A DNA stretch of 63,977 nt, the filler included, from Cladosporium halotolerans (lineage: Eukaryota): NCBI RefSeq assembly GCF_011745625.1. It is 7 parts of 7 records of this genome, joined end to end, with 100 filler letters (N's around TTAATTAATTAA, not from the genome) between each part and the next. Parts side by side here need not be neighbours in the genome. Positions count along the whole stretch, not along the records: positions 9,543 to 18,858 come from NW_027191607.1; 6 more parts are not named here. One strand, 5' to 3'. The position numbers were made by a program, and so were the translations under genes. The notes beneath the pieces were generated by a model, which saw nothing but the letters and a program-made list of their open reading frames with translations, made no database searches and was not told where the DNA came from. Each line of letters begins with the position of its first letter. Positions within the stretch are counted from its first letter, which is position 1. Below are positions 4,110-46,734 of the stretch, in pieces.

Positions 4110-4294
4110 TTACTTCCTCAACGAGTGCTCGGGAATGAAGGCAGTGTCCAAAGTGTAATCACCGATCGTCAGGCTGAGCAATAATCCGAAGAAGCCAACG
4201 CCAGTGGATGTAGCGAAAAGCATCTTGAGCGCCCAAGCATAGGCTCCCCGGAGCTGCATCTTCGGCGAATTCTCACTTGATAGTGCTTGCAGTA
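4110..4294 (-). pseudogene. Possible C-terminal remnant of an MFS transporter adjoining the pogo insertion
   Basis: LRGAYAWALKMLFATSTGVGFFGLLLSLTIGDYTLD resembles the last TM helix of fungal 14-TM MFS proteins. No clear upstream part was found. Confidence 0.35.
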
Positions 4295-6435
4295 GAAGCT
4301 TTCCCGGTGTGGGGCACATCCCGACGTCGGGCACACCCCGGCGTACGTGAACAACACCACCTTCTCGGTCTCAAGCATCGTCAAATCTTGATCAATTGAG
4401 CTAAAACCCCGAGAGGGCGTAGAGAAAGGCTTGGTTGTGATGTTTGTGTAATCACTTTTCCTCAAAGCGAGCCGGTTTCTTGATGGTACGTCCACGCCTT
4501 GACCTTGGCCGGATCGGCACCATCTCCTCGGTCAATTCGACTGTAGCCGAAGCGGCCGTGCTAGACGACTTCTGCTTGGCTGGTCTACTTCTATGTCTCT
4601 TTCGCCGCGCTGCGGACTCTATTTGAAGTTGCTTTCGAGCGTTCTTGGCCTCCCTGGCTTGCTCCCTTTGGGCCTTCTTGAGAGCGTGCTCGGCCTTTCT
4701 TGCTTCAGCACGCGCAGCTCGCTCTTCACGCTTGCGCTGAGCTTCCAACTCCTTCTGCACTTTCGCCGCAGCTCTAGCTTCAGCTCTGGAGACCTTTTCT
4801 AGAGCCTCGCGTTCTTTGGCAGCCTCCTTGGCGTCCTGAAGCTCTCTGGCCCTTCGAATCTTGGAAGGGCTGAAGAACAGAGCGCCGATGCCCTCATCCG
4901 CTCTGAGCTCCTCAGTAAACGGCTGCCGACGCTTCCTTTTCTTCTTCTCTCCATTGAGAACCTCGGCATAGCCTTTCTCGCGGTCTTCCGCCAGCCTGAG
5001 CTTGGCGGACAAGGTGATGCATGCTCCGCCTAGTTTTCTGATGATTTTCGCGGTCTCAGTGTCTCTCTCGGCCACTGCTTCGTTGACGATCCTCCTGATG
5101 GTTCTCTGCGCCGACGGTGTGTCCAAGCAGCTGCTTGAGTGTCTCGAGGGTACCAGTTCGACTTGGGAGGCCTCAGGATGGTCCCCTCGCTGCTCATCGA
5201 AGATCTTGAGCACCTGGTTCGAATCGAAGGGTTCGATGCCCGTCCTGCGCCATCCAGACCTTACGTTGGCTTCTGTAAAGGCTTTGTCGAAGGCCGAGTA
5301 GAAGTTCTTGAAGAAGTCTCGCTTGGTGACACTCGCAATGCCTTGAGACAGCCTAGAGTGAGCGTCTAGCTCCTGACTGTAGTGCGTAGCCAAAGGCCCG
5401 AAGAGACTGACGTCCAAGGGCTGCAGCCTGTGCGTCGAGTGAGGAGGAAAGACTGCCACCAGTATCTTGTGACTCCGGCACCACTCCAGGAAGCTCAACG
5501 TACAGTGCGAGCCATGGCCGTCGAGAATGAGAAGTCTCCAGTCTCTACCAGCCTTACCGGCAGTCTGCTTGTCGAATAGGCTCTGCAACCAGCTCAGAGC
5601 AAGTTCATTATTCGTCCATCCATTAGGTGAGCTCGCGAACCAGCAAGGATGCTCCTGTGGGTCGTGGTCCTGCAGCCAAGAGTCCTGGAGGTCGCCGCTG
5701 ACCGCCTTGTAGATCAAAGCTGGTGCTAATGAGCTTCCGTCTGCACAGATAGTCGCAATAAGAGTGATCCACTCTCTCGAACCGTCCTGCCCTGCGCCTA
5801 GTAGCCTCTGTTGTCGCACGAGAGCTCTAGGAAAGACCCTCTTGACTTTCTGTAGGTGGCCGATGAGGAAGCCTTTCTCATCCATGTTGTAGCAATTGTG
5901 AGGCTGTATGCTGTACTGGTCAATCTTCTGCCTCAAAGTGGAGAAGTACTGTCTATATGAAGCCGCAGAGTCGGCCTTGTGTCGTGAGAGGTCGATGGTG
6001 TTGAGGTATCTGCAATCCAAGACATCCTCGTGTCTGGCTTTGAAGTCTGCAGACCAGTTTTTGCCGGGCTGCTTGCCACATACATAGGAGGCCCAGAGAG
6101 TTACCATTGCCGGCGTAGGCGGCAAACACCAGTCACAGAGCTTTTGTATCTCTTTCACAAGCACCAATTCTTGCTTGTTGGCTAATAATTGCTTTGTCTC
6201 GTTAGCCTTAGCTACAGAGACTCTCTTTCCACGGAAGTGCTTGCTAAGCACTGATCTCTCAACATTAAACATTCTAGCTGTTTCAGAAACATTGGGCTCA
6301 TCGGCGCTTTTCAGAAACGCGACTGCTTCATTGATAGCTGCCATGGTCGCAGAGTGAACGCGTGTTGAAGCGGTATTGTTTACAGCTGTGGAGGTGTGCC
6401 CGACGTCGGGATGTGCCCCACACCGGGAAAGCTTC
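4295..6435 (-). mobile_element. pogo/Fot1-like Tc1-mariner DNA transposon, apparently intact
   Basis: Perfect 43-bp TIRs GAAGCTTTCCCGGTGTGGGGCACATCCCGACGTCGGGCACACC at 4295-4337 and 6393-6435, flanked by TA at 4293-4294 and 6436-6437. Confidence 0.95.
4452..6344 (-). CDS. pogo-family DDE transposase (630 aa)
   Basis: N-terminal HTH/CENP-B-like region. Catalytic motifs NMDEKGF, LILDGHGSH and QPLDVSLF. Basic coiled-coil tail. Uninterrupted ORF. Confidence 0.95.
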   Translation of the reverse strand: MAAINEAVAFLKSADEPNVSETARMFNVERSVLSKHFRGKRVSVAKANETKQLLANKQELVLVKEIQKLCDWCLPPTPAMVTLWASYVCGKQPGKNWSADFKARHEDVLDCRYLNTIDLSRHKADSAASYRQYFSTLRQKIDQYSIQPHNCYNMDEKGFLIGHLQKVKRVFPRALVRQQRLLGAGQDGSREWITLIATICADGSSLAPALIYKAVSGDLQDSWLQDHDPQEHPCWFASSPNGWTNNELALSWLQSLFDKQTAGKAGRDWRLLILDGHGSHCTLSFLEWCRSHKILVAVFPPHSTHRLQPLDVSLFGPLATHYSQELDAHSRLSQGIASVTKRDFFKNFYSAFDKAFTEANVRSGWRRTGIEPFDSNQVLKIFDEQRGDHPEASQVELVPSRHSSSCLDTPSAQRTIRRIVNEAVAERDTETAKIIRKLGGACITLSAKLRLAEDREKGYAEVLNGEKKKRKRRQPFTEELRADEGIGALFFSPSKIRRARELQDAKEAAKEREALEKVSRAEARAAAKVQKELEAQRKREERAARAEARKAEHALKKAQREQAREAKNARKQLQIESAARRKRHRSRPAKQKSSSTAASATVELTEEMVPIRPRSRRGRTIKKPARFEEK

Positions 6436-9108
6436 TAGCACCGTCGCACGCCGGCAAGTACCCGGGGTGTTTGACCGTGATACGCTGTATGAAGGAAGGT
6501 GGAAGCATATGGCTTGTGGGATGGCAGTTGCTATGCCTGGTATAGCGCGGGCGCTACGTGCTTGCGAGTAGCATGTTAAGGTGTCAAGAATTCTTCTTGA
6601 CAGATAATGCGGGAATAAGAATCGCACGATGATGGTAGTGTTTGCAATCACTCGTAAACAAAGCTGTTCACAGCAGGCCTGAATCGAAAAAGGCTCGGAT
6701 CGGGCCGTTCATCAAGCCACAGGGTAACGTACATGCTTTGCAATACGCATGACACGCGGACACAATTTGTCAGCTTTTCAGCATCTTATTTCTCAACTTA
6801 TTTCTTTGTTGCTCACATTCTTGAAATTGTTATACGGTGCTCTTCCACGAGTACGGGGATCCCCAGGAGTCTCTCTTTTTGGAGTCTAGCTCTGAGAAGC
6901 TCCAATCCATTCTCAAACGTTCGATCAAGCGTGAACAAAACGTGAAAAGGCGTCCGAGGACAGTACCGCAGGCATTGAAAGTGTGCGCTCGATACGACCT
7001 TCCCAAGAACCACCGACAGCGCGAACAATGCACACTCTCTCCATTATTGCGTCGAAGCAAGGTACACTCAACACACCTCTCCGCAAGAACGCTGTGTATC
7101 CCAAATTGCTCTCCAGGAAACATGTGTCTGAATCTGAGATGATCCTGATCCTGGATCAATGTCGATCGAAAAGTATGCAAGCTTCATAGATGCCTAGCTT
7201 ACAGTCCGGTCCTTGATCTCCGTGCAGTCTGACAATTATGAGACCCCTAACCACCTCCCTGAGTAACCCCAAACCCTCTGATTACGCGTCGGCAGAGCCC
7301 CCCACCTTTTGTTTAGACTGCTCTATGATTGTCGTGCGAGAGCTACCCACTTATCAAAAATATTCCACCTTGCATCGAACATCTCGACTCGGAGATACAG
7401 AACATTCTAGGGTTAATGCCGAACGTAAGAAGCATCTAATGGGTCTGGACTATGTACCCAGTGTACAACTTAGACGCAAAGCACGGAGCAAAGACGTCCA
7501 CTTCGAGGTGCTGACAAGTGAAACATGTCGAGTACGATGATAAATTTAGTGGAAGGGCATCGCGTTGCAGTACAGCTGTCTCCGCGGTGCCCTTGTAACC
7601 GACGCTAATGAAAGCACGAGCAGCAATTCGGGTGCCAAGACTGCGGCTCCGCGGCCGTGCGGAGCTAGGCAACGCGATCTTCAGCGTCCCATCTTCACCA
7701 CCAATCGTCCAGTTCAGTAACTCGACGATATATCATGAGGCATTTTGCAGAGCCATAGAACTTTGACAAGTCACAACTGAGCATACAATTAGTAGCGTCC
7801 ATCCACATGTGCCGGGAATCCACCTGTGCCGGGACATTTTTTCTGATCTTCGCTCTGCATCTGTTATCCACGCCACAACTGATTGATAACCCATCTCTTG
7901 CTCTTCTCCTGTCATTTGCCTATCGGCCTGACCATGTGTCGGAGCACCGATCGCGCGGACAGCCGTCCCTTCGTCCAAATAGTCGCCGTCATCGTTCGAC
8001 GCATCTGCTTTCGAGCCTGCGCAAAGGCGACACGCGGTCTGAGTAGAGTTGAAAGTAGATGCGCTAGATGCGCTACGACGAGAAGAACGTCGTCCATTCA
8101 AATGCATCCAGCTAGAGACCGTTGACAAAGGTTGCGGCATGCAGATAAGTGCCAGACCGGTTTTTCGGCAGGATCAGCCTTCGGATACACTGACAAGGGC
8201 CAGACGCAGAGAAGCTCCGATGTCGCGACCTCTGCGTTCATTGATTCGCTCGGTCGGCACCGTGCCGCAAGGCGGGCTTGCCGTCTGTCCGTCCGCAACG
8301 AGACCGCGTCTCAGCGGTTTTGATACCAGTGCAGGCTGTTACCGTTCCGCAGGAGGCGGAGCAAAATCGTACGGAAGCTCATAGAAGGTCACCTGTCAGA
8401 GATATGGCGCTGGTAGAACCAGCGCATGCTGCTGACCTGTATTGCCTCCTTACCGTCTAAGCGTTTTGCAACTGATGTCCCATTGTGACTAGCCAATCAA
8501 GGCGGCCTTCCAGGAGACGACACAGAGGACGGCTTGCAGTGGTCTGGACTGTCGGCTCTCACGTCGTAACAGGAAACCCTGAATCTGGGCGCCAATGTAG
8601 GGCTAGATCAATCGCATACAAGTGCAATCGAGATACAAGCTGTGGACGCAGTAACGCGCTTCTGGGAGAAGCTCTGGAACGGCCTCTCTCTGCAGCATTG
8701 AAACCAGGTGTGACATGTTGGCTTCGGCTAACCGATATGAGATTGCTGCGACACCTCAGCATTGCTCCTTCATGAAGTTGCCGTTTGCTCATTGGTCGCA
8801 TGCCTGCGGGGAAGCTCAAGCGATGCACGGATTAGGCCCTGATTTCTTACACGTTCATTCAATACTGTACATAAGCGGTGCCAGGATGCAGGCGTCCAAT
8901 ATGCGAACGGGACACGGTCTAAGCCGTCTCATCCGATCGATCTGATCCTTCAGTTGCCAGGGAGTCGCGCTGCGATACATCACCAAGCAGTCTGCATTAC
9001 ATCTCTACCATATCAATTTTTGCGAGTTCTCAAACATTCACGCTAGAAGCTTTGTCTGTATCAGACACAGGACTCATTCAGATCAAATCAAATTTAATAT
9101 GCGTCGCG

Positions 9109-9442: not shown

Positions 9443-9542
9443 NNNNNNNNNNNNNNNNNNNNNNNNNNNNNNNNNNNNNNNNNNNNTTAATTAATTAANN
9501 NNNNNNNNNNNNNNNNNNNNNNNNNNNNNNNNNNNNNNNNNN
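9443..9542. other. Artificial contig spacer (N44-TTAATTAATTAA-N44)
   Basis: Six-frame stop linker. Identical spacers at 18859-18958, 28264-28363, 37574-37673, 46735-46834 and 55443-55542. Confidence 0.98.
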
Positions 9543-9741
9543 CTACAGGAAGTGCCTTATCTCAGGCGTTTCGGTACAAAGGTGAGTAAATTACACCTTC
9601 TCCAGCAGCCTGCAATCTCCGCAGCAAAGACCATCACAAAATTCACCTTTTTACTGCAAGGTGGCAGCTCAAATTGCCTATTGCACGTTCCATTAGCCCG
9701 AAAAACCTCATACAATGCTGACGGTAACTGACATTGATTTC

Positions 9742-10470
9742 GTTTTCTTTTTTTTTTGCTTTTCAAAATCATACTGCATTTACACTAGTTGGCTTATGAC
9801 ACGTCGCCTATCTTCTTGACGGTTTCTATAGCATCCGTGTTTGCCCTTATGTTGTTCATTTTCATTACATTTATGCAAGTGTTCCTGGCTCCACCGAGCC
9901 CACGCAGCTTTGAAACGTATCCCCCTCCTGCTTTCTTGTTATTGTCACGCCTCGTCTGTCCCCTCAGTCTTCTCCGACCTACGTTGGCATCCAGTACTCC
10001 AATGTGTCCCGCTCCAGTCGTTCGATATCTGAGGAGCCATCTTGATCGCTTTCTCCAGTTGACCACTTGCGCACGTCTCTAGCGTTAAGAAATTGGAACA
10101 CTTCTGCAGCAGCCTCTCAGTTACTCCGAACGGAGTCTACAGCTCTACTCTGTCTCTCCTTCCGCTAATCAAGACCTGCTTGCTGCTCAGCCTCCTTAGC
10201 GTAGTAGCCCGCTGCCTTCGCCATACTCTACATCTGAGCAGTATGCATGACCGACTGCCACATTGCTTCACACCACCAACAGTGAGCATCGTGCGACTTG
10301 CCGACCCTCACACGGCGGACGCATGTGACTCAAAAGTAGCTGCAATTTGCTCAGTCGGTTTTTCTGTCCTCTTTATCAGACTTTCGACCAGCACGTTGCG
10401 ACGGAGGTCACTGCTGCGACCACCACTCCTAAATTTACGAAACCGTGCATGGGCGGAAGTCTCCTCTGCC
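9742..10470 (-). mobile_element. Degenerate, internally deleted LINE 3' remnant
   Basis: Minus-strand pieces VVVAAVTSVA..V**RGQKNRLSKLQLLL and DAHCWWC..RCRVWRRQR match ORF2 at 41738-45607. The 3' UTR resembles those near 47800 and 52180. A-rich tail at about 9743-9757. Confidence 0.8.
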
Positions 10471-10626
10471 ACAACCTTGAATTGACGATAAAATTACTAC
10501 GAACACGGACTCAAGAAGCTTAAGGTCTTACAGCTTGAGAGGCGCGGCTGGAGCCTGCTGAGCGCGACACTTCGACGGCAACACTAAGCACGCCAAGTCA
10601 TGTGACCATGTGCTCAGTGATCGATG

Positions 10627-11180
10627 TAACCTCTATCCGGGCGTCGCGAAAACATTGGCGTTCCGAAAGCTGTCCGCATTATAGCAGCCATAACTTCCCG
10701 CGCCTCGCTCTGCACCATACATAACTCTTTCAGTTTTTTCACCGGCACTGCGACCCTCCTCCATATGTTTCTCAGCCTTGTCACTTGCAGCGAAAGACGA
10801 TCTTGGCAGGCCGAGATGTCGTAGGGCATTGATGAAATCTCCACACTGTTTGGCAGAGACAGTCGCGACAGGTCACAAACAGTTGCAATTGATCTGAAAC
10901 ACACTCCAGGATGTCCTCCAGCTTCTAGACTGCATGACAGATCTATATTTTATCTCGATCCATGTCATATGAGATAAGGTTGCAGGGATATACAGTCGGC
11001 TGACTTGAACCTGCAGGGCAGCACCATGGCGATGATATCATCAGAAGCTAACAAATGGCCGGCGACTTAAACAGCACACTACTGAAATCGGTCAGCTGGT
11101 AAGCGGCATACTCACGTCGCGGGCCGCTAGCCGTCTATCCCCGCGCTCGCAGCATGCGACGTGGCGTCCTGGCTGTCAGG
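10627..11180 (+). repeat. Left arm of long imperfect inverted repeat
   Basis: Collinear blocks shared with the reverse complement of ~13430-13978: TAACCTCTATCCGGG, GCGAAAACATTG, CAGCCATAACTTCYCGCGCCTCGCTCT, TGATCTGAAACAYACTC, GATCTATATTTTA, AAGGTTGCAGGG, GGCGATGATATCATCA, CGGGCCGCT. Roughly 70% identity by eye. Confidence 0.9.
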
Positions 11181-11509
11181 GTCTACTGCGTTCCTCGACT
11201 TGGATGGGCCCTGCTCGAACCCATCATCTTCCTACCTCACTGCAATAGAACTCTGCCGTGAAAGCCAAAATCGCAGCTGGCTGTACAAAACTACGCCAAA
11301 AGAGTCTCATAGCTGCTAAGTCATATCGTCCATCCATTTTCTTGTGTCAATATGCGTCGGAAACCCTCTGCAATCGGGAAAGGAGGGATTTCTCAGAGGA
11401 CATGGGAGTATATGCGTCCGCAAACCAGACGCATATACAACCAGATATATCCGGACGATCATAAACATCCATACGGTGGGGTTGCTTCGCTCTAGCCGAC
11501 ATTCAGGCC

Positions 11510-12172
11510 ATGGCGAATCAAGAAATTGCCATCTTTGCTCGGTTCAATGTTCAACCGCCGCTTCATATGTGCTATCGCGTCGTCGCTACGGATGGTTCTA
11601 ATCCCAATCACATTGGCTTACAGGCTCGTGCCCAGTGGGCATATCCGACAATCGGCAGTGTCAGAAAGCACCTATGGTGGGAGCCCTTCCAGTCGCCATG
11701 GATCTCTCTGTTCTCCTCATGGGCCTCCGCGCTCCGCCGCGCAAAGCACTTCGCTTGCGAGTGCAGGGCGACTCGTGTCTATATCATGGCAATTGACATG
11801 GAGCCCATTGAGACGGACTGCATTGATGCATATCAATTTGCGCTGGCTTACCGTCTTGACAATCCTTGGCTATACCGAGAAGAGATATTGTGTTTCAACA
11901 CGATCCCCGAATCGTGTCTACTAGCAGAGATCCCCGCGGAGAAACCTGTTGCTCGGACTGCCCTCCGTCCCAGGCTGAAGGTTCCTGAAGATCTCCTGAC
12001 AGAAGCCATATCGACCTATTCAAGGAGACTCTCACCTCTAGTAGAAGAGGCTGATCACATTGTCCGGGACTGCGAAGCCGTGCGTTGCTGGTTCTTCGAC
12101 TCAATCTGGTCCAGAAGCATCTCCGAGCCCCAAGCGAAGATGAGTCGGATCATGCAGAGCTTCAACACCTGA
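11510..12172 (+). CDS. ADP-ribosyltransferase-fold-like protein (220 aa)
   Basis: Motif order CYRV..KHLWW..SPWISLFSSWASA..VYIMAID..YREEILCFNTIP fits the R-S-E (enterotoxin/pierisin-like) ART pattern seen in uncharacterised fungal proteins. Intact ORF. Confidence 0.65.
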   Translation: MANQEIAIFARFNVQPPLHMCYRVVATDGSNPNHIGLQARAQWAYPTIGSVRKHLWWEPFQSPWISLFSSWASALRRAKHFACECRATRVYIMAIDMEPIETDCIDAYQFALAYRLDNPWLYREEILCFNTIPESCLLAEIPAEKPVARTALRPRLKVPEDLLTEAISTYSRRLSPLVEEADHIVRDCEAVRCWFFDSIWSRSISEPQAKMSRIMQSFNT

Positions 12173-12212
12173 AACACTCTAGATTTCGTCGAACGAGTCC
12201 AATATCTGCATT

Positions 12213-13352
12213 TCAGTTGAACATTCTTTGCCTCTTTCGTCCACGATCCTCGTATGCTTCATAATCGTGCCCAATCCTATTAGCTTTGGAGAAGCGAGAG
12301 CCAAGTCCTCCCACAGCAGAATCAGCACCACCCGAGATCGATCGATCACTGGATGACAGCGAACACTCTTCGAACCCTTCCTGTCGCTCGAGGTCGTCAA
12401 TGTTGGCCTGACTTCTTGATCTTTTGGTCGGGCTGGCGCTGCGATTGCGACCCTGGCTTTCCGTGAAGAGCCAACACTCTGGGCCGACGTATTTTCGGTC
12501 CTCAATCGTACCGTCAAGACGGCAAACGAGTAGGGCCCGCTCGCGCCCAGCACGAAGGAATGTATGCAGCCTTGGGAAAATGTCCCAAGCAAAGCGAGCA
12601 AATAGATACTGTGCTGGACGCTCAGCCAGAGGCTGTAGCTCTATCCCATGCCAATATTGATGCAGCTCTTCCCCATCGTTCAAGACTTGTGTGCACCATG
12701 ATGCGCCACTTGTTGATGGATCCTTTTTCCGTGGCACGATAGAGAATTCGGACTTATCCCAGAGGTAATGTGCATCAGACCTTAGCCGTAGGATGTTCGG
12801 GAGTGTGTCGGCAACGGTGTCTCCGCTGCGCGTTGACAGCATCCCATATTGCTCCATCTCATTGCTTGCGAACCAAGGCTTCTCCTCCTTCGATATCACA
12901 TGAGCATCTTGGGTAGCAAGAGATCTTTCTGTAATGCGGCAGCTTTCAATAGCGACAGCTTCGATCGAAGAACCTCGTTCCGCGGTGAGTTGCTTGTCCT
13001 TTACCGAGGCTTCGTGCCAAAGGTCCGGTAGGACACCATGAAGGAATTGCCAGCTGCGGAAGTTGGGCACTACAGAGTACGTTTCGATAATATCGGCATC
13101 GGCACTAGGGACGTGGAGAAAGTAGTCGCCAGCAAGCAGAAGTCCATTAGCATCAGCGGCCGCTCTGGGCGCGCCCAAGCGCTCGGGGGAAAGCCAGTGG
13201 TCAGTCCTGTTATTGAGGATCACAGAGCATGCTGCCCATACGGTAGCGAAGTGTATATGGTCACGATCGCGACCATCACTTGCTGCAATTGTAAACAGGA
13301 TGTTGGGAGTTGGATATCCAGGGTGTCGTAAGCGAAACGGTCGCGTCGACAT
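12213..13352 (-). CDS. Fungal HNH endonuclease domain protein
   Basis: CRITE..DAHVI..WFASNEM..NILRLRSDAHYLWD..FSIVP is the fungal HNH pattern. N-terminus FRLRHPGY..YSVVPNFRSW. The ORF is open to 13505; the likely start is MSTRPF at 13352. Confidence 0.85.
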   Translation of the reverse strand: MSTRPFRLRHPGYPTPNILFTIAASDGRDRDHIHFATVWAACSVILNNRTDHWLSPERLGAPRAAADANGLLLAGDYFLHVPSADADIIETYSVVPNFRSWQFLHGVLPDLWHEASVKDKQLTAERGSSIEAVAIESCRITERSLATQDAHVISKEEKPWFASNEMEQYGMLSTRSGDTVADTLPNILRLRSDAHYLWDKSEFSIVPRKKDPSTSGASWCTQVLNDGEELHQYWHGIELQPLAERPAQYLFARFAWDIFPRLHTFLRAGRERALLVCRLDGTIEDRKYVGPECWLFTESQGRNRSASPTKRSRSQANIDDLERQEGFEECSLSSSDRSISGGADSAVGGLGSRFSKANRIGHDYEAYEDRGRKRQRMFN

Positions 13353-13429
13353 TGCTGTTGATGCTTGGAGTGTGGAAACAAGAATTGGGTCTCCGCACGC
13401 GTTCGTGGCAGGCATGGGTCGAGCCGTGC

Positions 13430-13978
13430 CCGACAGCCGTGGGGTGCCTAACGTGATGCGATCGCGGAGACGGATAGTGAGCGGCCCGTAACGTGAGCAT
13501 GCCACTTATCAGCTGGCCTCATAAGCAGTCTGCTTGTTATGCCGCCAGTAACTACTCGGCGTTTGATGATATCATCGCCGCAACCTTGCCCTGCAGTTTT
13601 AGATCAGCCCACTTTGCACCCCTGCAACCTTGTCTCATACAGCATATATGAACGTAAAATATAGATCGTTATGCAGGCTTCACACCAGAGGATAGTATAG
13701 AGTATGTTTCAGATCATTCGTAGCTACTTGTGACGTGTCAGGACTACTTTCCCAAAGAGCGCGGAGAATCCATCGTAGTGCCACGACCTTTCGACCTGCC
13801 ATGATCCCTTTTTGCCGCGAGCTACGAGGCTGCAAAACATATGTGAGAGGCCCGTAGCGCTGGTAAAGTACTCAGAAGAAAGGTTTATAGTAGAGAGCGA
13901 GGCGCGAGAAGTTATGGCTGATGTTATGTAGGGGACCTTCGGTACGGCAATGTTTTCGCAACACCCGGATAGAGGTTA
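13430..13978 (-). repeat. Right arm of long imperfect inverted repeat
   Basis: Reverse complement aligns to 10627-~11180. Confidence 0.9.
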
Positions 13979-14563
13979 ACTATAGCACGGAGCTCCTTGG
14001 TGTACAGCAACCCAAGAATGCCTCTGTATTCTTACAGTATGTGCAACTCATTGTTCATAGTGACTGCTTGGAATCAAAAATCACGTAACCGCTACTTCCC
14101 TACTTCATTGCTTCTATAATCCTCTTCAATACGACTTCTCAGTCAGCTGAATTCACCTCACGTGACAATAGCCATTCAGGAGACTCAGTCCTAACAACGA
14201 TCTGGTCCTCATCCCAACCCCAGAACAGACGGAGAGCCCTGAGCCCGACCTTATCTGCGCCGGGGGCTTCTTAACCGAATTTGCAGAAAGGGCCACCGAA
14301 AGGATCGGAGTAGTCGAAGTGAAATCTCATTCTTTGATAACCTATGCCGCATCATCCGTCCTCCTGGAGGCGCGAACCCGGCGAAAATGTCTCAAGCGAA
14401 TGGAGGCTATGATTTGCAGCGGCCAAGAGCTGGGTCTTCAAGGGTATAAACGTGTCGCATTCCACTACCGATGTAACCTGGCTTTGATCTCGTTCATTTA
14501 ACAACCTCATCACTGGGGAAATTGGCCGGAACTTTTGATACCATTTCGACCATTCCTCAGCCA

Positions 14564-15932
14564 ATGCAAGTCATTGCTAACCCCAAACTCAAAGCACTTC
14601 TCGCTGTGCTTATCACTTTATGCATTGTTCAAAGCGGCATCTTCTCGTACACGTATCATTTGTTCGGCAATATTGAGACGTTGCGGCCGGGTGCTCGTGA
14701 GACCTCGAAAACATTCACAGAAGCCGACACTACGACAGAATGGCGCTACGATGTAGACAGCCATTCCGAAAACATTGCACTTAATTCAAGACAATGTGAC
14801 TTGGCCTTTCCAAATCTCTGGCGTGAGATCGATAGAGCACATGATTTCTGGGCCAATCAACTCCAACGCCGAATAACGATCAATGACACCTCCCTCAACC
14901 ACTGGGGAAGCGGTGTCTCCCGTTGCTTGATCCACAATAACCGACTTCGTATCCTACAAACCAAAGGCATCTTCGGAATCGAAGGCTCGCAAATGCCAGA
15001 ACGAGCCATGGCCGTATGGCAGCAGATTTACCGCGCCCTACTTGGTGCCACTGCGGCGGGAGAAAATCTCCCGACCATCGAATTCTTACTCAGTGTTGAC
15101 GACAAGCCCGACACTTTTAGCAGCGAGACCACAGACATATTTGCGCTCTGGGCCTTCTCGCGAAGGCCTAGTGATCCTTCTCACGATGGTGTATTTCTAA
15201 TACCCGACTTCAACCACTGGTCTTGGAAAGAAGTGGCTGGTTCGTTCGCAGATATGCGGTTGTACGGCAAAGAAGCGAACGAGGTCATCCAAGAAAAGAT
15301 TCCCAAATTGGTGTGGCGAGGTGCCATTTGGACAAACCCTGAAGTGAAAGGTAACCTTGTGGAAGCGGTGCGAGAAAAATCTTGGGCTGATGCGTCCGAT
15401 TTTGACTGGTCAACACGTTCGGGTTTCATATCTACGGAAGATTCCTGCTCTTACGGCTTTTCTCGTACACACCGAAGGCCGCTCGTGGTCCGGACGCTTA
15501 AAGTACCTGTTGAATTGCAGGAGCGTGACTTTTATCCATGAGCTCGAGTGGACGACATACTACTACCATCTCTTGAATCCTGATGGACCTGACCAGAACT
15601 TTGTACCTGTGAAACGAGACTTCTCCGACATCGAAACGAAGATACGCTATCTGTTTGGAGACAGAGAGATAGCTCAGCGCATCGCGGACAACGCGGTAGC
15701 GATTTTTCGTGATCGATACCTCACCCTTGCCGCTGAGGCATGCTATTGGCGCCGACTGGTTCAAAAATGGAATGAGGTGGCCGTCAGCCCCAACCTGTAC
15801 GAGTATGCCAGAGTGAATCTGAGCGGCAATTTAAAAGTCAAGAAGAGATTGAGAGGCATTGCTTTCGAGGAATTGGTGGTGTCTCAGGGTCGAGAAGACT
15901 GGCCCCCAGAATATGCAAAATCAAATGAATAG
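14564..15932 (+). CDS. Glycosyltransferase family 90 (CAP10-like) with a single +1 frameshift
   Basis: N-terminal TM anchor; QCDLAFPNLWREIDRA; FLIPDFNHWSW; KIPKLVWRG. One extra T in the run 15458-15461 breaks YGFLVHTEGRSWSGRLKYL. Downstream FRDRYLTLAAEACYWRRL. Confidence 0.85.
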
Positions 15933-30685: not shown

Positions 30686-32639
30686 CTACCGCCATAGCGC
30701 CATCGATATGATCATTTGCCCACAGCGAGTTTGATGCTGCGTTGGGACCGGTATGTCGTGTTGGAGTGGCGTTGGAAGAGGCTCCAGCGCTTCAACGCTA
30801 GGCTTCGGCCGTACTAGTTGATCTGAGATGGTTTCCACGGCTTTGGAGGCCCGGATTTGGTTGTCGGCATTTTTACAGCGCACAGGTGAGGCCAGGGACC
30901 CGACGAATCTCTCAGACCCATCGCAAAAGGATATGCGGCTTGCTCTGAAAGGCTTATCATCCTTCGGCGTTCTTCTTGCTTCTGTGACTGTAAAGCTTGA
31001 GCCCAGCTCAGATTTGACTGTAGTTTTTGGGTCATGCAACATTTCAGACTCGAAGAAACACCGGACGAAGCTCCGCGCGACCACTAGGGGAGAAGTGTGA
31101 TCTGCGAAATTTGCTGCATTACCTCTATGTAATACATCGTCGAGTGTGATCGCCTGCCAGTGATGGAACAGCGCCATCGGAGGACGTCCAGAGCGGTCTT
31201 GCAAGCGGACCTCTTCAAATCGTTCCATCGAGGCCGGTCGTGGCGTCTCTGACCCTTTCTTATTCTCCTTTCGACGCGTACGAAGTGACTCGATCACCTC
31301 CGATCTGAAACCGCGTGAGTGAACAAAGGACGCGTGTGCTGATACGGCTGGGTCCTCGTGAAGCGTCGATTCCGCCGGGGCTTTGTGGCCAACCTTCTTC
31401 AGCCCGTGACTCCTCACCAAATTCAACTTTGGATAATTCTTGATGGTGTACAACCAGATTTCGACGTACCTCGCTACAAAGTCCTTGCCGTCTCGGGCGA
31501 ACGAAGCACGACAAGCTTCTCGGAGGCTGCACTTCCTGCCCGGCCACAATTGCCGTAAAGGGTTGTAACAAAGCTCCAGCAGGGCCACATCTGCATGGAA
31601 AGTGCTAAAAGTGAGTACCTTCTCGCAGGCCAGAGTTCTGGCCAGCAGGTCGGCGCGTGGCCGCCTCTCGCTGACAGCGCTGAAAACGGCAGAGGCCTGC
31701 CACGCCTTGTCTATTAAAAACGCATCACGCGCGGAATGCGCTGGCATCCGAAGGCACAAGAGCTTCACCGTGGCTGTGTCCAGACACTCCGGCATCACAA
31801 TCTCATCGAGAATGCGTGACCAGACATGATGCAGACACTTGAGGTAGTGATACACTTCCTGCAGCGATGTTAGCTTGCGCTGTCGCAGCGGGTGCTCAGA
31901 TAGCGAGACGCGCCTCGCGGCAACGTAATGGTAGCACCCGGTTCAACGCTCCAGGCTGGAGATCGACCCAAAGAGCGATGTAAGGAAGCAATGGCGTGAA
32001 TGCGGCGAGCAGTCTTCCCTCGTCGACGATTCGAATCTCCCGCAAATTGCGTTGCTTGCGTGGCGTCAGCATTTGCGACCAGCGAGTGGCCTCGATTGCA
32101 TCGCTTCTACGTTCGGCATCGAGCACCTGCCTGAAGATCTCTCCATCGGTGGGTCCGATCTTGGGTCTGTACTCGCAACGGATGTGGTTCTGAGCGGCGT
32201 CTGGCAGGCCTGACAGAGCGGTGGTTAGCACTTTCGAGGTCCATCGAACCAGCAGGCATGCTCACTGACCACAGTCGTACAATTTTGCAACCCACCATCG
32301 ATCCGATTCCTGGAAATGGCGATTCGCCGCCAGGACTCTGTGCTTACCACGTAAGCAAGTCGCTTTCATACAGAAGCGTTTTGACGGCAGCACATGGCAC
32401 GATGACCCTCGATCCAAATGCCTCATGGACTCCTTTCCGAAAACGTCGCTGTCAACCATCACCGAGATAGCATGTGTCTCATCATCCCGACGACACCCTT
32501 GTAGCTTGAACTCCTTCAGCAATCGCTCAACTCTTTCTTTGTCTGTAACCCCTCCGTCTAGGAACTCTACGTTCGCAAGTTCCAGCAAAGCATACCCTCG
32601 AAAGTGTTCGCGAATTTCGGAGTGTACATCGCAAGGCAT
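30686..32639 (-). CDS. DUF3723 family protein (Starship-associated)
   Basis: Three exons: VERLLKEFKLQGCRR..CLRGKHRVLAA..WWVAKLY / TDGEIFRQ..LLPYIALW..LRCRE / EVYHYL..LDTATVKLLCLRMP..VLTFSTFHADV. The second intron (31859-31913) has a GC donor. Confidence 0.85.
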
Positions 32640-33098
32640 GTCGAAATTGTGACTCAGAAGCGGGAAGGAAGCATTAGGATTCGGGTGTCGGTCTGACCAG
32701 GTGTTTTGAAGCAGTGAAGAAGATAATATCCAACGCTGAAACAAATCAGAGCTCTTTTGGAAGAGGATTTGCTCCCAAGGATGGCGCCAAACACATCCTG
32801 TGGAACGCAAGTGGAGGGAGGAAGGCAAGAAGTCAGGGCCAAAGACGGTGACAGGATGTGAGGGGGGAGGGAAAGTGAGGGGGGAGGGAAAGAGAGGGGA
32901 GGGGGCAGGTGAGGAACTCCGCGAGCAAAGCCTATGCCTCCTGCTCACGCACGAGACCCCTCATCTCCGATCTTCGCGTGTCTTCCTACATCCACCAAGC
33001 GAACAAAAGACCCGGATTTCCCCACAACATCGCTCGTGCAAAATTTTGTTTCTTGTTCATCGTGTTATGATTCCTCAGGTTGACGCCACCAACACACC

Positions 33099-41737: not shown

Positions 41738-44700
41738 TCACCCCCTTCCGTCCTCCAAGGTCCCATGTTCCTCATCTGCACCCCGATCCAAACGCTCGAT
41801 ATCCCACGAGTCACTCTTGTTCGCGTCTCCAGCCAGCTTCATCCCCACTTCTGTGTTCTCAATGAACTGGAGGACTTCTACAATAGCATCTTCTGCAAAC
41901 AGTGTCTTCAGGTCTGCCTGATCTCGCCTTCCGCTGATCGAGACATTTCTCGCGCGCAGTTTCCGCAACATGGTGTCCCGCTGCCTTCGCCACTTCCGGC
42001 ACTGCAGCAAGAGGTGAGCGACTGTCTGACTGTTCCCGCCGCACCACCAGCACTGCGCGTCTTGGACCTTGCCGATCCTTAGAAGGTGAGTTCCCGTGAC
42101 TGCATGACCGGACTTGAGCTGCAAGTATCGAGCTGCGACAGACTTCCTTGCGTCTTTGATATTTCTGTTGATCTTGGTAGCCGGCTTCCACCTCTCCTTG
42201 ATGGCTTGTTTCACGTACGACAGCGAGGCTGATCGCATCTCTTTGGGCTGTTTCTTTGCCGCTCGTTGTGCCGTGGCTCGTGCTATCTTGTAGCCCTCCA
42301 CATCTTCGCCTTCCGGAAGCCACGTCAAAGCCACCCGGCCTCCTGCTTCTTCGACACCGTGTGCGTGTCTTTTGATGCCAGTGACGACTGGTAGTACCCA
42401 GTGCTCGCTGCTTCGGATGGCAGTCAGTCCAGCCCGCGACTCCGTAGCGATCTCGGCGCGGCAGTGATCTGTCCTCGAGAGTATCGAAATGAGGTCCTTC
42501 ACACCCATGCCTATGGCGAACAACGCAGCATCGACTGTTGTGATGTGATTACCTAGCGATGACCCTTTCGTCTTCCAAGTGCATCGCTCTCTCCGTGCGA
42601 TACCCACGCCGAAGCTCACATCCTTGGCTGTGCTCACAAAAAGTGTTAGTTGTTGCGGATGGTCAGGCTGCATTCTTTGCGGCGTCTGTGAGTAGCCTTG
42701 AGTCCGGATCACTGGGTTTGCTATAGGCGGGTCCACCTTGCGTGGCAGCTCGAACCCATACTCCGTGTCGTAGTTGACGTGCCTCACTACCTGCTGTGCA
42801 AGTCTGCTCCCGAACGATCGGTGCGTCTTTTCCGCTCTCATACATCCAATGCTAGACGGCTGACCTGTTGCTCCATCGTGTCTATAAAGCTCGCCGAGAC
42901 GGAAATTGGCGGGCAGGAGCTGGTGCATTGGATGATCTCCATTCGCGTTGAGCGCCCGCATCGCGAACCTGGTCTGGCGATGGTCAAGCAGATCTCGGGC
43001 GGTGGGTAGGCACGATTCCGCCCGAAGAAAGGTTCGAGGGGTTGATGTCAACAGCCCTGTGATGGCTCTCGCTTGGCTGTTCAGCAGCAGCTGCACTTTT
43101 TCCAATCGGTCTTTCTGACCTCTCCACCAGATCTCCGACCCGTACAATGCCACGGAGGTGACTACAGCCACGACCACTCTCCGCATCAAGTCCACCGACA
43201 AGCCGCCATTGCTTCTACTAAGACTGGATACCCGCTGTAGAGCTCCTTTGGCACTTGCCATCCTGTTTTCGAAGTGGCTTTTGAACGACAGCTTCGAATC
43301 CAGCCAGAAGCCCAGCCATTTTGTCGCTTCTTGCTTAATGGCAAAGCGTGCTGCCTCTTTTGCTGCTTGCAGAATCTTGCGACGCCTGCTGAAGACGAGT
43401 GCTTCGGTTTTGCTGACCTCGAAATCGACTTTGTTGTCCGATCCCCATTGTATTGCATCTCTGGCGATATGCTCGAGCTTCCTCGTGCCTTCTTCCACGT
43501 CATCACATTCTGTCACTAGACCGATGTCGTCCACGAATGAGATCGCCTGGAGCTTCATGTGTCTGTCTTCCAGCCACTGGAACATTGCGCTCACTGATAA
43601 GATGAACAGCACCGGTGATATCGGTGACCCTTGCGGCAGGCCCGCTTGAATGCTGCGGGTCTCGCCCGTTCTCCCGTCAATAATTAACATGGCTCGGCGG
43701 TCTGACAAGAACGAGTCCACCCAGCGCACGATGTTGCCAGCTATGCCGACTTGGGCCATCCGCAGCAGGAGTTTGTGCTTGTTGACCCGGTCAAACGCAC
43801 CTTTGACATCAAGGAGTAAAGCGAGTGCAATGCGCTTCTGGCTCCAAGCATTCTCGACTTTTGCGACCAGCTGAGCCACCGCGTCTGATGTCCCCCTTCC
43901 CCTTCGGCAGCCGAACTGCCCTCGATGGAAGATTTCGTTTGTATCACAGTAAGATGCGATCCAAGTTGCGACCGCCCTCTCCACCACTTTTCCAAGACAG
44001 TTGAGCAGGCTGATCACCCGATATGCTTTCGCGATGCTGTACGTGGGTTTACCGTGTTTGCGCAGCAAGATGCCTTTTGCGGTCTTCCACGTGGAGGGCT
44101 GGAACCCGGCCCTTATGCACCCTTGTACAAGAGCTACCACACGCTCTTCTGCCCAACTCCATAGCAGTCTCAACGCTCTAAAGCCGATGCCGTCCACGCC
44201 GGGGGCTTTGTTGACCGACTGTGTGAACAGAGCTTCGCGGACTTGTTTCGCGCTTACACCAGCGCTCGTGTCTGGAATCTGGATGTCTTCCTTGTCCCCG
44301 GCTTGAGGTGGGAATGCCTGCGCCATGAAGATCTCTTCCTTCTCCTCGGCTGTCGCCGCTATCTTGTCCGGCTGGCTGTCATTCCTTGCTACCTTGATCG
44401 CCGGTGTGTGCGATGGCACCTGAGGTTTCGTATATCTGAGCGCTTGCCAGCATCTTGCAGGATCAGACTCCAGTTTCGAGCTTTCGTCGGTCGGGAAGAC
44501 GCCCTCAAGAAAGCGTTCCCAAGCCAGTCTCTTGGACCTGCGGATGTAGGTGTAATAGTCGTTTCTCACCCGACGGTACTCATCGAAGCTAATGCGCCCG
44601 TCATTGTGAGCACGTCTAGCGCTCCCAAACAGCCTTCTCTGCTGCCTGATCTCGTCCGTCCACCAGCGCTTCGATCGTGGTCTCGGCGTTCTACCAGCGG

Positions 44701-45601
44701 CATGTCTGTCCATTACGGCTCGTAGGCTGTCTTGAATCCATATTGCTTCGGCTTCGAGTTCTGTTGCTGACGTGGCCGACGCATTGATCAGCGACCTTCC
44801 TTCACTCAGCTCAAGCCAGTGTTTGCTTGCTTCTTCTAATGCTTGCTCGTCTGCGCAGAGCCGATCGATGTTCCAGTTTTGTGTAGCATTTATCTGTCTT
44901 TCCGGGACGCCCGCGTTGAGTGGTGCCCACTCAAAGACGATTACCTCGTGGTCAGACGTTGTGGCCAGTGACTCGTCGATCTCCCACGTGACCAGTGCTC
45001 CGACCCTGCGGGTGCTCAGGGTCAAGTCGATTATTGATCTACAGTTCTTCCCACACCTCGTGGGCTGGTGGTCGTTGTTGTTGATGATGAGTTCGCGCTT
45101 CTCGATCAATCGCTCTACCGTCCCCGCATTCTGCCTCCCTGCAACCCATGGGTCCCACAAAGGACTGCGAGCATTGAAGTCGCCTGCGAGTATGGTCCGG
45201 CCCTCGATGAGTTGCGACACGTCTACGTGGTCCATCGTGTATCCGCCGCCTTGGACCCTGGCTTTGTTGTAGACATTCACCAGCCTCGTTCTTCGAACCT
45301 TCCTGCGGTTCACCGTCTCCCAGATGTCCAGGCACTGCACGTGCGGGCTGTCCACCAAGTCCGTCCTCTCTTCGAACATGTGGCGATCCAGTGCGTCGCT
45401 TCGAATTGCTAGCGCCACCCTCGTCTCTCGCTTCGCACATTCCGGCCATCGTATCTGAAATCCCGGATGGCTGATCACGTATCTCTTTCCCACGTACGGC
45501 TCTTGCAGGCACGCCACTTCGGCTCCTCGTTCAATAGCCGACTCCAAGGCAGCCACCGTTGACACAGCCGTGCCGTTGCAGTTATGTTGTATCACTATCA
45601 T
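41738..45601 (-). CDS. LINE ORF2: AP endonuclease, reverse transcriptase, RNase H-like, CCHC
   Basis: IQHNC..CLQEPY..GDFNA..IDLTL..SDH (APE); KAPGVDG, YRVISLLNCLGK, LPQGSPISP, FVDD (RT); CWWC..HLLLQC. Confidence 0.95.
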   Translation of the reverse strand: MIVIQHNCNGTAVSTVAALESAIERGAEVACLQEPYVGKRYVISHPGFQIRWPECAKRETRVALAIRSDALDRHMFEERTDLVDSPHVQCLDIWETVNRRKVRRTRLVNVYNKARVQGGGYTMDHVDVSQLIEGRTILAGDFNARSPLWDPWVAGRQNAGTVERLIEKRELIINNNDHQPTRCGKNCRSIIDLTLSTRRVGALVTWEIDESLATTSDHEVIVFEWAPLNAGVPERQINATQNWNIDRLCADEQALEEASKHWLELSEGRSLINASATSATELEAEAIWIQDSLRAVMDRHAAGRTPRPRSKRWWTDEIRQQRRLFGSARRAHNDGRISFDEYRRVRNDYYTYIRRSKRLAWERFLEGVFPTDESSKLESDPARCWQALRYTKPQVPSHTPAIKVARNDSQPDKIAATAEEKEEIFMAQAFPPQAGDKEDIQIPDTSAGVSAKQVREALFTQSVNKAPGVDGIGFRALRLLWSWAEERVVALVQGCIRAGFQPSTWKTAKGILLRKHGKPTYSIAKAYRVISLLNCLGKVVERAVATWIASYCDTNEIFHRGQFGCRRGRGTSDAVAQLVAKVENAWSQKRIALALLLDVKGAFDRVNKHKLLLRMAQVGIAGNIVRWVDSFLSDRRAMLIIDGRTGETRSIQAGLPQGSPISPVLFILSVSAMFQWLEDRHMKLQAISFVDDIGLVTECDDVEEGTRKLEHIARDAIQWGSDNKVDFEVSKTEALVFSRRRKILQAAKEAARFAIKQEATKWLGFWLDSKLSFKSHFENRMASAKGALQRVSSLSRSNGGLSVDLMRRVVVAVVTSVALYGSEIWWRGQKDRLEKVQLLLNSQARAITGLLTSTPRTFLRAESCLPTARDLLDHRQTRFAMRALNANGDHPMHQLLPANFRLGELYRHDGATGQPSSIGCMRAEKTHRSFGSRLAQQVVRHVNYDTEYGFELPRKVDPPIANPVIRTQGYSQTPQRMQPDHPQQLTLFVSTAKDVSFGVGIARRERCTWKTKGSSLGNHITTVDAALFAIGMGVKDLISILSRTDHCRAEIATESRAGLTAIRSSEHWVLPVVTGIKRHAHGVEEAGGRVALTWLPEGEDVEGYKIARATAQRAAKKQPKEMRSASLSYVKQAIKERWKPATKINRNIKDARKSVAARYLQLKSGHAVTGTHLLRIGKVQDAQCWWCGGNSQTVAHLLLQCRKWRRQRDTMLRKLRARNVSISGRRDQADLKTLFAEDAIVEVLQFIENTEVGMKLAGDANKSDSWDIERLDRGADEEHGTLEDGRG

Positions 45602-46734
45602 CGTCAACAGACATGTGCGTCGGGTCGCTGGAGCTGAGGATCTGGGTCGTCCTCACGAAATGCTTGGTCCTTGGCCGGAGTTCCCTTGTTGGTCTGGGCG
45701 ACGGTTGATCCCGGGGCAATGGCTCTGGTGTGCTATTTTTCGAAGATATCGGGATCAGATGCACTAGGGTGGCTTGGCCTGAGTCTGTCGGCGTCACCTC
45801 CATTTCTGCTTGATCTTCCTGGATAACAGAATCGTCCTGTTCTGGTGCCGTCTCCATCGCCGGCGGGCTGCTGCGCACTTCGGTCACCTTCTGTTGGCGT
45901 GTCTGTCGGCTCGATCTCCTTTCCGGGCACCTTGGCGATGTCGCCGGATGTGGTCCTCCGCAGTTCGCGCATTTCGCCGCGTGGTGCTCGCATGGTCCTG
46001 ATCTCTTGGTACAGATTTCGGCAACGCATTCATGCTTGCTCCCTTCGTGCTCGCCTGCGCACACGAAGCACTTTGCTTTCTCGGTACACTGGCCGAAGTG
46101 GTCTCGGCCACAACAGCGCATGCACATCCCGCCTTCTCCTCTTTCCCAGAATCTCTCTACCTCGTGACGTCTGCCGCCGAATGATAGTCCCTTCGCTAGA
46201 AATACATCCGCGGCCTTCTTGCTTTTCACAGTCAGGACCAGTGTCGACCTTTTGATGCTCCCGCTGACGAAGCGCTCGGCCAACGTGTCCCCTTTGATCC
46301 ATCGCGGCGCGTAGGGAAGCTGTTCACCCGTCATCAGTTCGATCTCCTCTCGGGCTACATCTAGTCCCCCTTGTGTCATGTAGCGGTCCAGCGCGACACC
46401 ATGCACTCGCAACTTCAGCCACTTTTCTGTTTTTTCCATGTAGGCAACCTCGGGGCCGAGCTTTCTCACAGCGCCCATCACCACTGGTGCGTAGTTGAGC
46501 AGTTCGTTGGCACACGCGTTTTCACTCAATACGCCTGTCAAGTTGCCTTTGTCTGTGTATGCCATTTGGGTCAATCTCACCGTCACATGGGCCCTCGAAT
46601 GAGCAAGGGCTTTGTTCACTTCGAACATAATGTCTCTAGGGTCGCAATCATGCGACTGTACATTTCTGACGAAGAGTACTCGGCGCTGGCCACGAGGGTG
46701 TTTTTTCAACTTTTTCTTACCGTTCGTGACCGTA
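45582..46734 (-). CDS. LINE ORF1 (gag-like, Cys/His knuckles), partial
   Basis: CMRCCGRDHFGQC, CFVCAGEH and CANCGGPHPATSPRC. Confidence 0.9.

Follow-up and report, generated by a model that had tools for sequence, protein, structure and literature searches.

In a 63,977-nucleotide stretch of Cladosporium halotolerans DNA (the window, along which all coordinates are counted), positions 10629 to 13976 hold an element in which two long inverted arms enclose two convergent genes, one for a predicted nuclease of the HNH_2 family and one for a DUF7587 protein predicted to have the ADP-ribosyltransferase (ART) fold. It is very probable that this unit is a mobile element that inserts at TA, and it has been mobile since two close relatives split. 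Regarding how it moves, we favour, with about as much confidence as doubt, an element with terminal inverted repeats (TIRs) that would be moved in trans by a transposase of the Tc1/mariner/pogo type, its gene pair being a self-serving module expressed from the arms.

Evidence of movement came from the contigs of four public runs (X1, X3, X4 and X9) placed on positions 9600-15000 at a likeness of at least 80%. In X4, a close relative under another organism label, one contig of 364 nt runs from 10626 directly into 13977 without the 3350 nt between them; its left part of 254 nt carries six other letters, its right side comprises 88 letters, and four letters at the joint (TAAC) fit either side. 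The empty site reads GATG-TA-ACTATAG and the occupied site GATG-TA-(ACCTCTATCC...GGATAGAGGT)-TA-ACTATAG, an empty allele of the kind that the earlier note on this DNA had proposed to seek, which reveals a TA duplication. A second copy of the family, the metagenome locus L001, has the junctions GCAT-TA-(element)-TA-CTCC, and because these letters differ beyond TA a target duplication of 3 or 4 nt is ruled out in favour of TA. Another X4 contig bears the left tip (10623-10822, two other letters) in an unlike flank, so that in the X4 organism a closely similar copy must occupy some other site. For X9, which bears a third organism label, 171 pieces could be placed on the element; the homology of seven contigs ends immediately before 10627 (flank agreement only 0.47), and many joints indicate deletion derivatives; depth is zero on the flank bins 10324-10504 and 14125-14848, a coverage hole which proves nothing by itself. 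In seven X9 contigs and one contig of X4 the match extends through the TA at 10627-10628. X1 probably represents the source organism (30.1 M letters of contigs), and there the element was found on one contig only, copy number in the source genome being based on Logan contigs only. X3 covers 11543-13359 with 0 differences and has no contig on the arms, a gap that supports no conclusion. In both X1 and X3, extra diverged contigs and higher depth were also observed at 10124-10284, 14040-14077 and 14589-14997, and as these lie in both flanks the element sits among other small repeats.

Copies elsewhere were obtained from a scan of metagenome contigs by HNH alignment, in which 164 candidate stretches yielded 41 loci. 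Five of these are members of the family of the window, and they compare with the window copy as follows:

Window copy: HNH gene open; DUF7587 gene open, its upstream extension out of frame.
L001 (whole contig 4451 nt): matches window 10627-13978 and no further, 86.3% over 3367 columns, tips exact, TA at both junctions; HNH open, DUF7587 with two in-frame stops.
L002: matches window 11598-13432, 79.9%, both genes and no arms; HNH open, DUF7587 without start and with a stop near its end.
L003: matches window 10622-13007, 80.5%, homology lost at the left end with 720 nt of other flank beyond it; HNH open and cut by the contig end, DUF7587 open.
L004: matches window 11565-13352, 67.7%, both genes and no arms, RIP-like (resembling repeat-induced point mutation); HNH and DUF7587 with many stops.
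L006: matches in separate pieces, internally deleted, left arm stopping at the same place with flank ...TG; HNH and DUF7587 mostly deleted.

The same ends thus recur on both sides in L001 and on the left side in L003 and L006, where the left-junction letters of these two decayed copies are AA and TG, respectively. The flanks of L001 (1013 and 105 nt) are unrelated to those of the window. Neither relaxed blastn nor a search for five or more conserved arm motifs found arms in L002 or L004. Together with the empty site and the TA duplication, these copies in unrelated flanks bear out the earlier claim of a discrete selfish unit, and the family can be described as cut-and-paste-type DNA transposons of ascomycete (Dothideomycetes-like) fungi. 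Its copies decay by deletion, truncation and RIP-like mutation, as in transposon families; in L004 (5200-7300) C>T and G>A changes number 129 and 127 versus 40-44 for the reverse, with a TpA/ApT ratio of 1.47 and 41% G+C. Both genes, in turn, are under purifying selection between copies: the ratio of nonsynonymous to synonymous rates (omega) was 0.19-0.24 for HNH and 0.21-0.41 for DUF7587, in six of six pairs each (window, L001, L002 and L003). Nucleotide identity between the window and L001 is 94.7% for HNH, 85% for DUF7587 and 79-84% for the arms.

The features of the element in the window are, with coordinates and strand where one applies:

10627..10628: left copy of the TA target-site duplication (X4 empty site with a single TA; L001 with TA at both junctions).
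10629..13976: element proper, 3348 nt, beginning ACCTCTATCC and ending GGATAGAGGT (ACCT...AGGT), from the limits of L001 homology and the X4 joint.
10629..11181, plus strand: left terminal inverted arm, non-coding, conserved at its tip and again in a promoter-like inner section ahead of the DUF7587 gene.
10629..10657, plus strand: left terminus, 29 nt, candidate transposase-binding end.
11031..11042: palindrome GATGATATCATC of the left arm, within a 13-nt run (11031-11043) invariant in four arms (window and L001).
11093..11103, plus strand: CAGCTGGTAAG block of the left arm (CAGCTGATAAG in other arms).
11352..11495, plus strand: upstream frame for the N-terminal extension of relatives (MRRKPSAIGKGG...), out of frame with the main open reading frame (ORF) and closed by a stop.
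11510..12172, plus strand: DUF7587 gene, 220 aa, predicted ADP-ribosyltransferase fold (Pfam 1.3e-12; model).
12173..12212: spacer between the convergent stop codons, 40 nt.
12213..13415, minus strand: HNH_2 nuclease gene, 400 aa, with the conserved start MSTRP at 13352 (Pfam).
13429..13976, minus strand: right terminal inverted arm, non-coding, with the first HNH-frame ATG 14 nt downstream of its inner end.
13505..13515, minus strand: CAGCTGATAAG block of the right arm, matching CAGCTGGTAAG of the left arm.
13565..13576: palindrome GATGATATCATC of the right arm.
13948..13976, minus strand: right terminus, 29 nt, two mismatches against the left terminus.
13977..13978: right copy of the TA target-site duplication.

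The arms had been described by eye as inverted, some 550 bp long, about 70% identical and most conserved at their outer tips, and all of this held. Comparison of 10501-14100 with the window by blastn gave one inverted pair, 10627-11154 with 13978-13454 (71.56% over 531 columns, 9 gaps, E 9.35e-69), and no further arm copy elsewhere in the window; a repeat search resolved this pair into five gapless blocks in collinear order, spanning 10612-11154 at 70-77%. The outer tips are exact, with TAACCTCTATCCGGG at 10627-10641 and its complement terminating at 13978, and the inner ends were placed at about 11181 and 13429 (GGCTGTC block). The limits of 10627-13978 given to the unit are correct insofar as homology ends there; the outermost TA on each side is target duplication and not part of the element. 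The arms are non-coding, because their mismatches are spread evenly over the three codon phases (e.g. 17/14/16) and none of the six frames of either arm is free of stops, and this rules out protein-coding arms. RIP was also ruled out as the source of their divergence, since 98 transitions stand against 73 transversions, as in ordinary divergence. Rfam families gave no match at E <= 0.1 within 10400-14200.

In an alignment of six arms, the left arms of the window and L001 are 79% identical and the right arms 84%, whereas left and right arms within either copy are 67-69% identical, so the two sides diverged before the sampled copies separated. Of the 574 alignment columns, 303 do not vary among the four arms that the window copy and L001 contribute, and unbroken stretches of eight or more such columns fall at 10627-10641 (the tip), 10646-10655, 10685-10697 and 11031-11043 (with the palindrome). 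The palindrome is followed in the arms by a CAGCTG(A/G)TAAG block, and the CAGCTGGTAAG/CAGCTGATAAG sequences presumably resemble a GATA site. The 29-nt terminus shows 0-2 mismatches across the four termini of the window and L001 and 6-7 in the decayed L006 and L003; allowing up to seven mismatches, it occurs in the window and the 41 loci only at the ends of its own family. The inner end of the left arm lies about 170 nt upstream of the ATG at 11352, which opens the long DUF7587 frame of relatives, and that of the right arm 14 nt upstream of the first HNH ATG and 77 nt upstream of the conserved one at 13352. Such positions suggest that the inner arm parts, conserved in blocks, may act as promoters of both genes.

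Only two long ORFs lie between the arms. They are convergent with stops 40 nt apart, as the earlier note had it, and their positions stand; the description of both as intact has to be amended for the window copy, in which the upstream extension of DUF7587 is out of frame. No other ORF longer than 125 aa is present in the element, and Pfam finds DUF7587 and HNH_2 only, with no transposase domain, in keeping with the description of the unit as transposase-less. In all five loci whose HNH is at least 56% identical, DUF7587 adjoins HNH in convergent orientation, and so the co-occurrence of the two genes that had been put forward as a check was found. Near the HNH of the other 36 loci, many of them on short contigs, DUF7587 was found in none (tblastn and six-frame hidden Markov model search). 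Both families are widespread in Ascomycota according to an Atlas look-up. A complex prediction for the two proteins scored 0.00, which gives no verdict and is evidence neither way.

The HNH call was upheld by profile, residues and fold. The protein matches Pfam HNH_2 (PF13391) at 2e-4 with 21.6 bits against a cut-off of 21, and most of its relatives carry a precomputed PF13391 match. The closest protein in the collection is 94% identical (none is identical), and the nearest named relatives come from Dothideomycetes such as Cercospora, Acrodontium and Friedmanniomyces. A model built with 57 sequences (mean predicted local distance difference test, pLDDT, 82.5) has a beta-grasp-like N domain (residues 22-108), the HNH domain and a disordered basic tail (the last 75 residues or so). 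The modification-dependent HNH restriction endonucleases VcaM4I and TagI are the best structural matches of the nuclease domain: residues 150-278 align to VcaM4I with Z 8.9 (rmsd 2.4, 98 aligned) and to TagI with Z 8.5 (rmsd 2.8, 93 aligned), and VcaM4I is also the top Foldseek match, with a probability of 0.87 but an E of 0.06. Sequence identity to both enzymes is 13-15%, and the hosts of the element are fungi. Residues 22-108 gave ubiquitin-type matches of middling strength (Z 6-6.7). H172, N207 and H216 are nearly invariant across the 57 sequences. This H...N...H set, the profile match and the modelled fold place the protein in HNH_2 as a predicted nuclease with its catalytic residues intact. 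In the accessible part of a classification of His-Me finger nucleases, a fungal HNH_2 subset falls in group 6 together with the restriction enzymes AlwI, BbrI and HphI (PMC5714182). PADLOC and NCBIfam gave no match for either the HNH or the DUF7587 protein.

The ART-like call for the second protein was likewise borne out by the fold. The DUF7587 model (31 sequences) has a pLDDT of 93.1, and Foldseek returned 27 matches at E <= 1e-3, every one among the matches listed being a toxin chain of the cholera/pertussis/heat-labile (LT) type. In a VIA structure search, which does not depend on Foldseek, the highest scores were those of pertussis S1 (Z 10.4), EcPltA (10.0), the Rhs toxin TreX (9.9) and Scabin (9.6), with pierisin (7.1) and DarT (5.5) at lower ranks; 11 of the top 12 matches, from Z 10.4 to 7.1, are titled ADP-ribosylating toxins or ARTs. 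A profile search found no sequence-level match to solved chains apart from two chance-level rows. We are confident from this model that DUF7587 has the cholera/pertussis-type (R-S-E) ART fold. R-S-E enzymes have a catalytic Arg, a Ser-x-Ser and a Glu-x-Glu or Gln-x-Glu in the NAD pocket. Among the 31 sequences E125 never varies and R23 and S66 hardly do, while the residue two before E125 varies, and R23/S66/E125 may represent a putative R-S-E-like set. No fused DUF7587 form scored among 8000 longer candidates, which is weak evidence. With regard to the N-terminus, the frame opened at ATG 11352 meets a stop at 11493-11495 in the window copy, as a frame change at 11478-11484 separates it from all closer relatives; the X9 copies have one extra T behind 11481. 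The closest protein in the collection, P0092 (97%; none is identical), has yet another N-terminal frame.

How these two enzymes relate to the movement of the element is the point on which readings diverge. Members of the Tc1/mariner/pogo superfamily are recognised by a TA duplication combined with inverted termini, and since such elements are also at hand, a trans-acting DDE transposase appears the most likely agent. According to the reading we favour, this enzyme would recognise the 29-nt termini and perform both excision and insertion, the inner arm parts would serve as promoters from which both genes are expressed, and the pair would form a module for the persistence of the element and not passive cargo. 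As a nuclease and an NAD-using modifier, its products may have host DNA as their target, or else host proteins of silencing or repair, with addiction, drive or anti-silencing as possible roles. Regarding available transposases, a pogo/Fot1-type element at window 4293-6437 has a 660-aa open frame with DDE_1 (1.2e-24), looks intact and is bounded by 66-nt TIRs that are 86% complementary and start TAGAAGCTTTCCCGG. A Tc1/mariner-like frame, named by eye from its translation, is present in L005 (3864-4244), and a pogo-like match lies in the L002 flank (about 10065-10413). These fragments in L005 and L002 are within a few kb of HNH_2 genes, which may only reflect repeat-rich surroundings.

Several observations weigh against this reading. 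Neither the window nor the 41 loci yielded an element that combines the same termini with a DDE gene, and the DDE_1 element at 4293-6437 was rejected as a partner, its termini being unlike those of the HNH/DUF7587 element. Non-autonomous elements usually keep no intact, selected genes across diverged copies. Moreover, HNH is the best-kept part of the element and intact in four of the six family copies (window, L001, L002 and L003), as one would expect if it were the enzyme of the transposon itself. The evidence for movement also has its limits here: the empty site is one contig of one run from an automatic assembly, and X1 has no second piece on 10505-13943 at a likeness of at least 80%, a placement that short tips may escape.

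The main rival reading is an autonomous element, its HNH nuclease, perhaps guided or licensed by the ART-fold protein, being its own mobility enzyme. Here the termini and TA targets would be cleaved by the nuclease with a stagger of 2 nt, the joining of the ends being left to host repair, and the transposon class implied would have no recombinase of the DDE, HUH, tyrosine or serine kind. We consider this a real possibility, albeit an unlikely one. It accounts for the lack of any other enzyme gene in the element and of a trans partner in the window, the 41 loci and the X1 contigs, and it agrees with an HNH gene that is intact in four copies, has nearly invariant catalytic residues and an omega of about 0.2, and is more conserved than the rest of the element, while DUF7587 is more often broken (two stops in L001, truncation in L002, the frame change in the window). 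Each gene also begins just inside an arm, as in autonomous two-gene elements, and the nuclease domain resembles restriction endonucleases (Z 8.9 and 8.5). However, we know of no HNH enzyme that performs cut-and-paste transposition, the literature searched holds no precedent, and a TA duplication marks the DDE enzymes of Tc1/mariner/pogo. Furthermore, among the 17 longer of the 41 loci, which were those tested, only L001 and L017 have long inverted repeats, and 35 of the 36 distant HNH_2 loci are without visible ones (17 of 41 loci tested); as repeats are so rare at these loci, the HNH_2 family as a whole is not visibly transposon-borne. L002, in addition, has an intact HNH without arms. One specific form of this autonomous scheme, drawn by analogy and in our view rather doubtful, is that the ART protein would place a mark, either on DNA or on a host factor, where the termini or the TA target lie, and that the HNH enzyme, similar to modification-dependent nucleases, would cut at these places with a 2-nt stagger. 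Marking of DNA is proposed because the fold also matches the DNA-modifying ARTs Scabin, pierisin and DarT.

A composite origin is improbable in our judgement. It supposes that a resident host pair of HNH_2 and DUF7587 genes was bracketed by two inverted repeats of about 550 nt and that the block is now mobile, on the model of bacterial composite transposons, in which the outer ends of the repeats move the whole block. The convergent pair without arms in L002 (HNH 78% identical) and L004 (56%) would fit such an origin; L002 is truncated inside DUF7587, though, and L004 is RIP-like, and for these reasons they look like decayed copies and not like ancestral loci. It is also in line with L017, of another HNH_2 lineage, which has an inverted arm of about 431 nt that is absent at the same site from the 94% identical L014, a difference showing that arms can be gained or lost independently. 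On the other hand, in a composite transposon each arm would be mobile with ends of its own, and here the arms have no inverted ends of their own, their inner ends do not mirror the tips, and there is no solo arm among the X1 contigs. The arms are, furthermore, older than the sampled copies and share conserved blocks in promoter-like positions. These findings, with the absence of the whole 3350 nt at the empty site, also answer the concern raised in the earlier note that the arms might match two independent insertions of a known transposon.

A free-standing homing-endonuclease locus, in which HNH would cut the empty allele and repair would copy the unit in, is highly improbable. An HNH gene is present, and the empty and occupied alleles at one site differ precisely, as homing would predict. 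Nevertheless, at least four unlike flanks occur among the window and the loci (window, L001, L003 and L006), with further ones in X4 and X9, nothing but TA is common to the flanks, and homing does not produce a TA duplication. Finally, we give almost no credence to the view that the unit is immobile and that an ordinary gene pair stands between the halves of an old segmental duplication, inverted, of a promoter region. The unit is indeed single-copy in the window and in the X1 contigs, and identity between its arms is only about 70%, but the unrelated flanks, the empty site, the TA duplication and the stop of homology at the tips in L001, L003, L006 and X9 all speak against this view.

Regarding known systems, the element has in common with Tc1/mariner/pogo (ITm) transposons the TA duplication, TIRs, deletion derivatives and presence in fungi, and a pogo-type DDE_1 element is about 4 kb away along window coordinates. 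It differs in having two unrelated selected genes in place of a DDE transposase or its remnant, in termini unlike those of the pogo-type element of the window, and in its arms of about 550 nt, which are much longer than usual fungal pogo or Tc1 ends; a DDE gene with matching ends was seen neither in the window nor in the 41 loci. Maize MuDR has two convergent genes, each beside a long TIR that serves as its promoter. The likeness to MuDR that had been pointed out applies to this layout of a convergent gene pair next to long inverted repeats, a promoter role of the arms being probable here by position only; it does not extend to the duplication, which is TA and not 9-11 bp, and Pfam finds no Mutator-like element (MULE) domain. 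PIF/Harbinger elements, with a 3-bp TWA duplication, a DDE gene and a Myb-like gene, were rejected as well, for TAA/TAA is possible in the window but L001 has TAA/TAC, and the domains are absent.

Partial precedents exist for each half of the gene pair. KolobokP (Kojima and Bao 2022) is, in the accessible part of its description, a eukaryotic DNA transposon whose nuclease is of the His-Me finger (HNH) type and whose terminal repeats measure 450-660 nt (PMC9587614). It resembles the element in its His-Me nuclease and long terminal repeats, which are direct in KolobokP and inverted here, and it also encodes a DDD/E transposase, lives in animal hosts and has a small nuclease of group I intron origin (PMC9587614). 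AACRNL (Nat Commun 2026), as far as the portion of the report at hand goes, is an ART gene that spreads with adjacent transposons and acts on host silencing in favour of its own amplification; this ART is homologous to diphtheria toxin and lies beside hAT elements in teleosts (PMC12957317). It offers a precedent for a transposon-serving ART, although the ART of the element is predicted to be of the cholera/pertussis type and AACRNL, according to the same portion, has neither an HNH partner nor terminal inverted arms of its own. The literature searched, outside Repbase and subscription journals, contains no description of a fungal transposon with HNH and ART genes, in agreement with the view that the architecture is undescribed. 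Nor did that literature mention DUF7587 or, in its accessible parts, link PF13391 in fungi to transposons, and its accounts of toxin-antidote meiotic drivers of the Spok and wtf type did not mention HNH.

Fungal annotation treats HNH_2 and DUF7587 as ordinary hypothetical genes, and one lineage of each travels inside a transposon. If a DDE enzyme moves the element in trans, it would be a rare small non-autonomous element that keeps a selected two-enzyme module, and a tractable system for what such genes do (addiction, drive or anti-silencing). If the HNH nuclease moves it, the transposition mechanism would be categorically new, and should the nuclease act with an NAD-dependent modifier this would be a eukaryotic transposon class without a recombinase. 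In either case the 29-nt termini with TA provide a search key for a catalogue of the family, the predicted ART fold provides a first functional hypothesis for DUF7587, and the arms, as paired ends that may bear promoters, are open to promoter assay.

Additional observations concern the distant HNH_2 loci and the rest of the window. L017 (978-4482) holds a distant HNH_2 gene, 34% identical and with an intron, between AT-rich inverted repeats of about 431-440 nt; L014 (1767-4794), 94% identical to L017, is without the right repeat at the same site, and neither locus has a DUF7587 gene. L032-L034 lack three stretches of about 86 nt present in L018 and look like spliced (cDNA-like) copies of distant HNH_2 genes, so that this HNH_2 lineage has introns and is probably transcribed. 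In the window, paired runs of 44 N, 12 nt apart, occur every 9.3 kb or so (9443-9542 and five other places; 528 N) and have the look of masks put on the record and not of assembly gaps. Two adjacent DUF3723 frames on the minus strand at 30689-32960 (2.2e-26 and 1.4e-9) are probably one gene with an intron or a frame break. Lastly, a 1304-aa frame at 41741-45652, also on the minus strand, contains RVT_1 (1e-33) and Exo_endo_phos_2 and belongs to a non-LTR (long terminal repeat) retrotransposon that may be intact.

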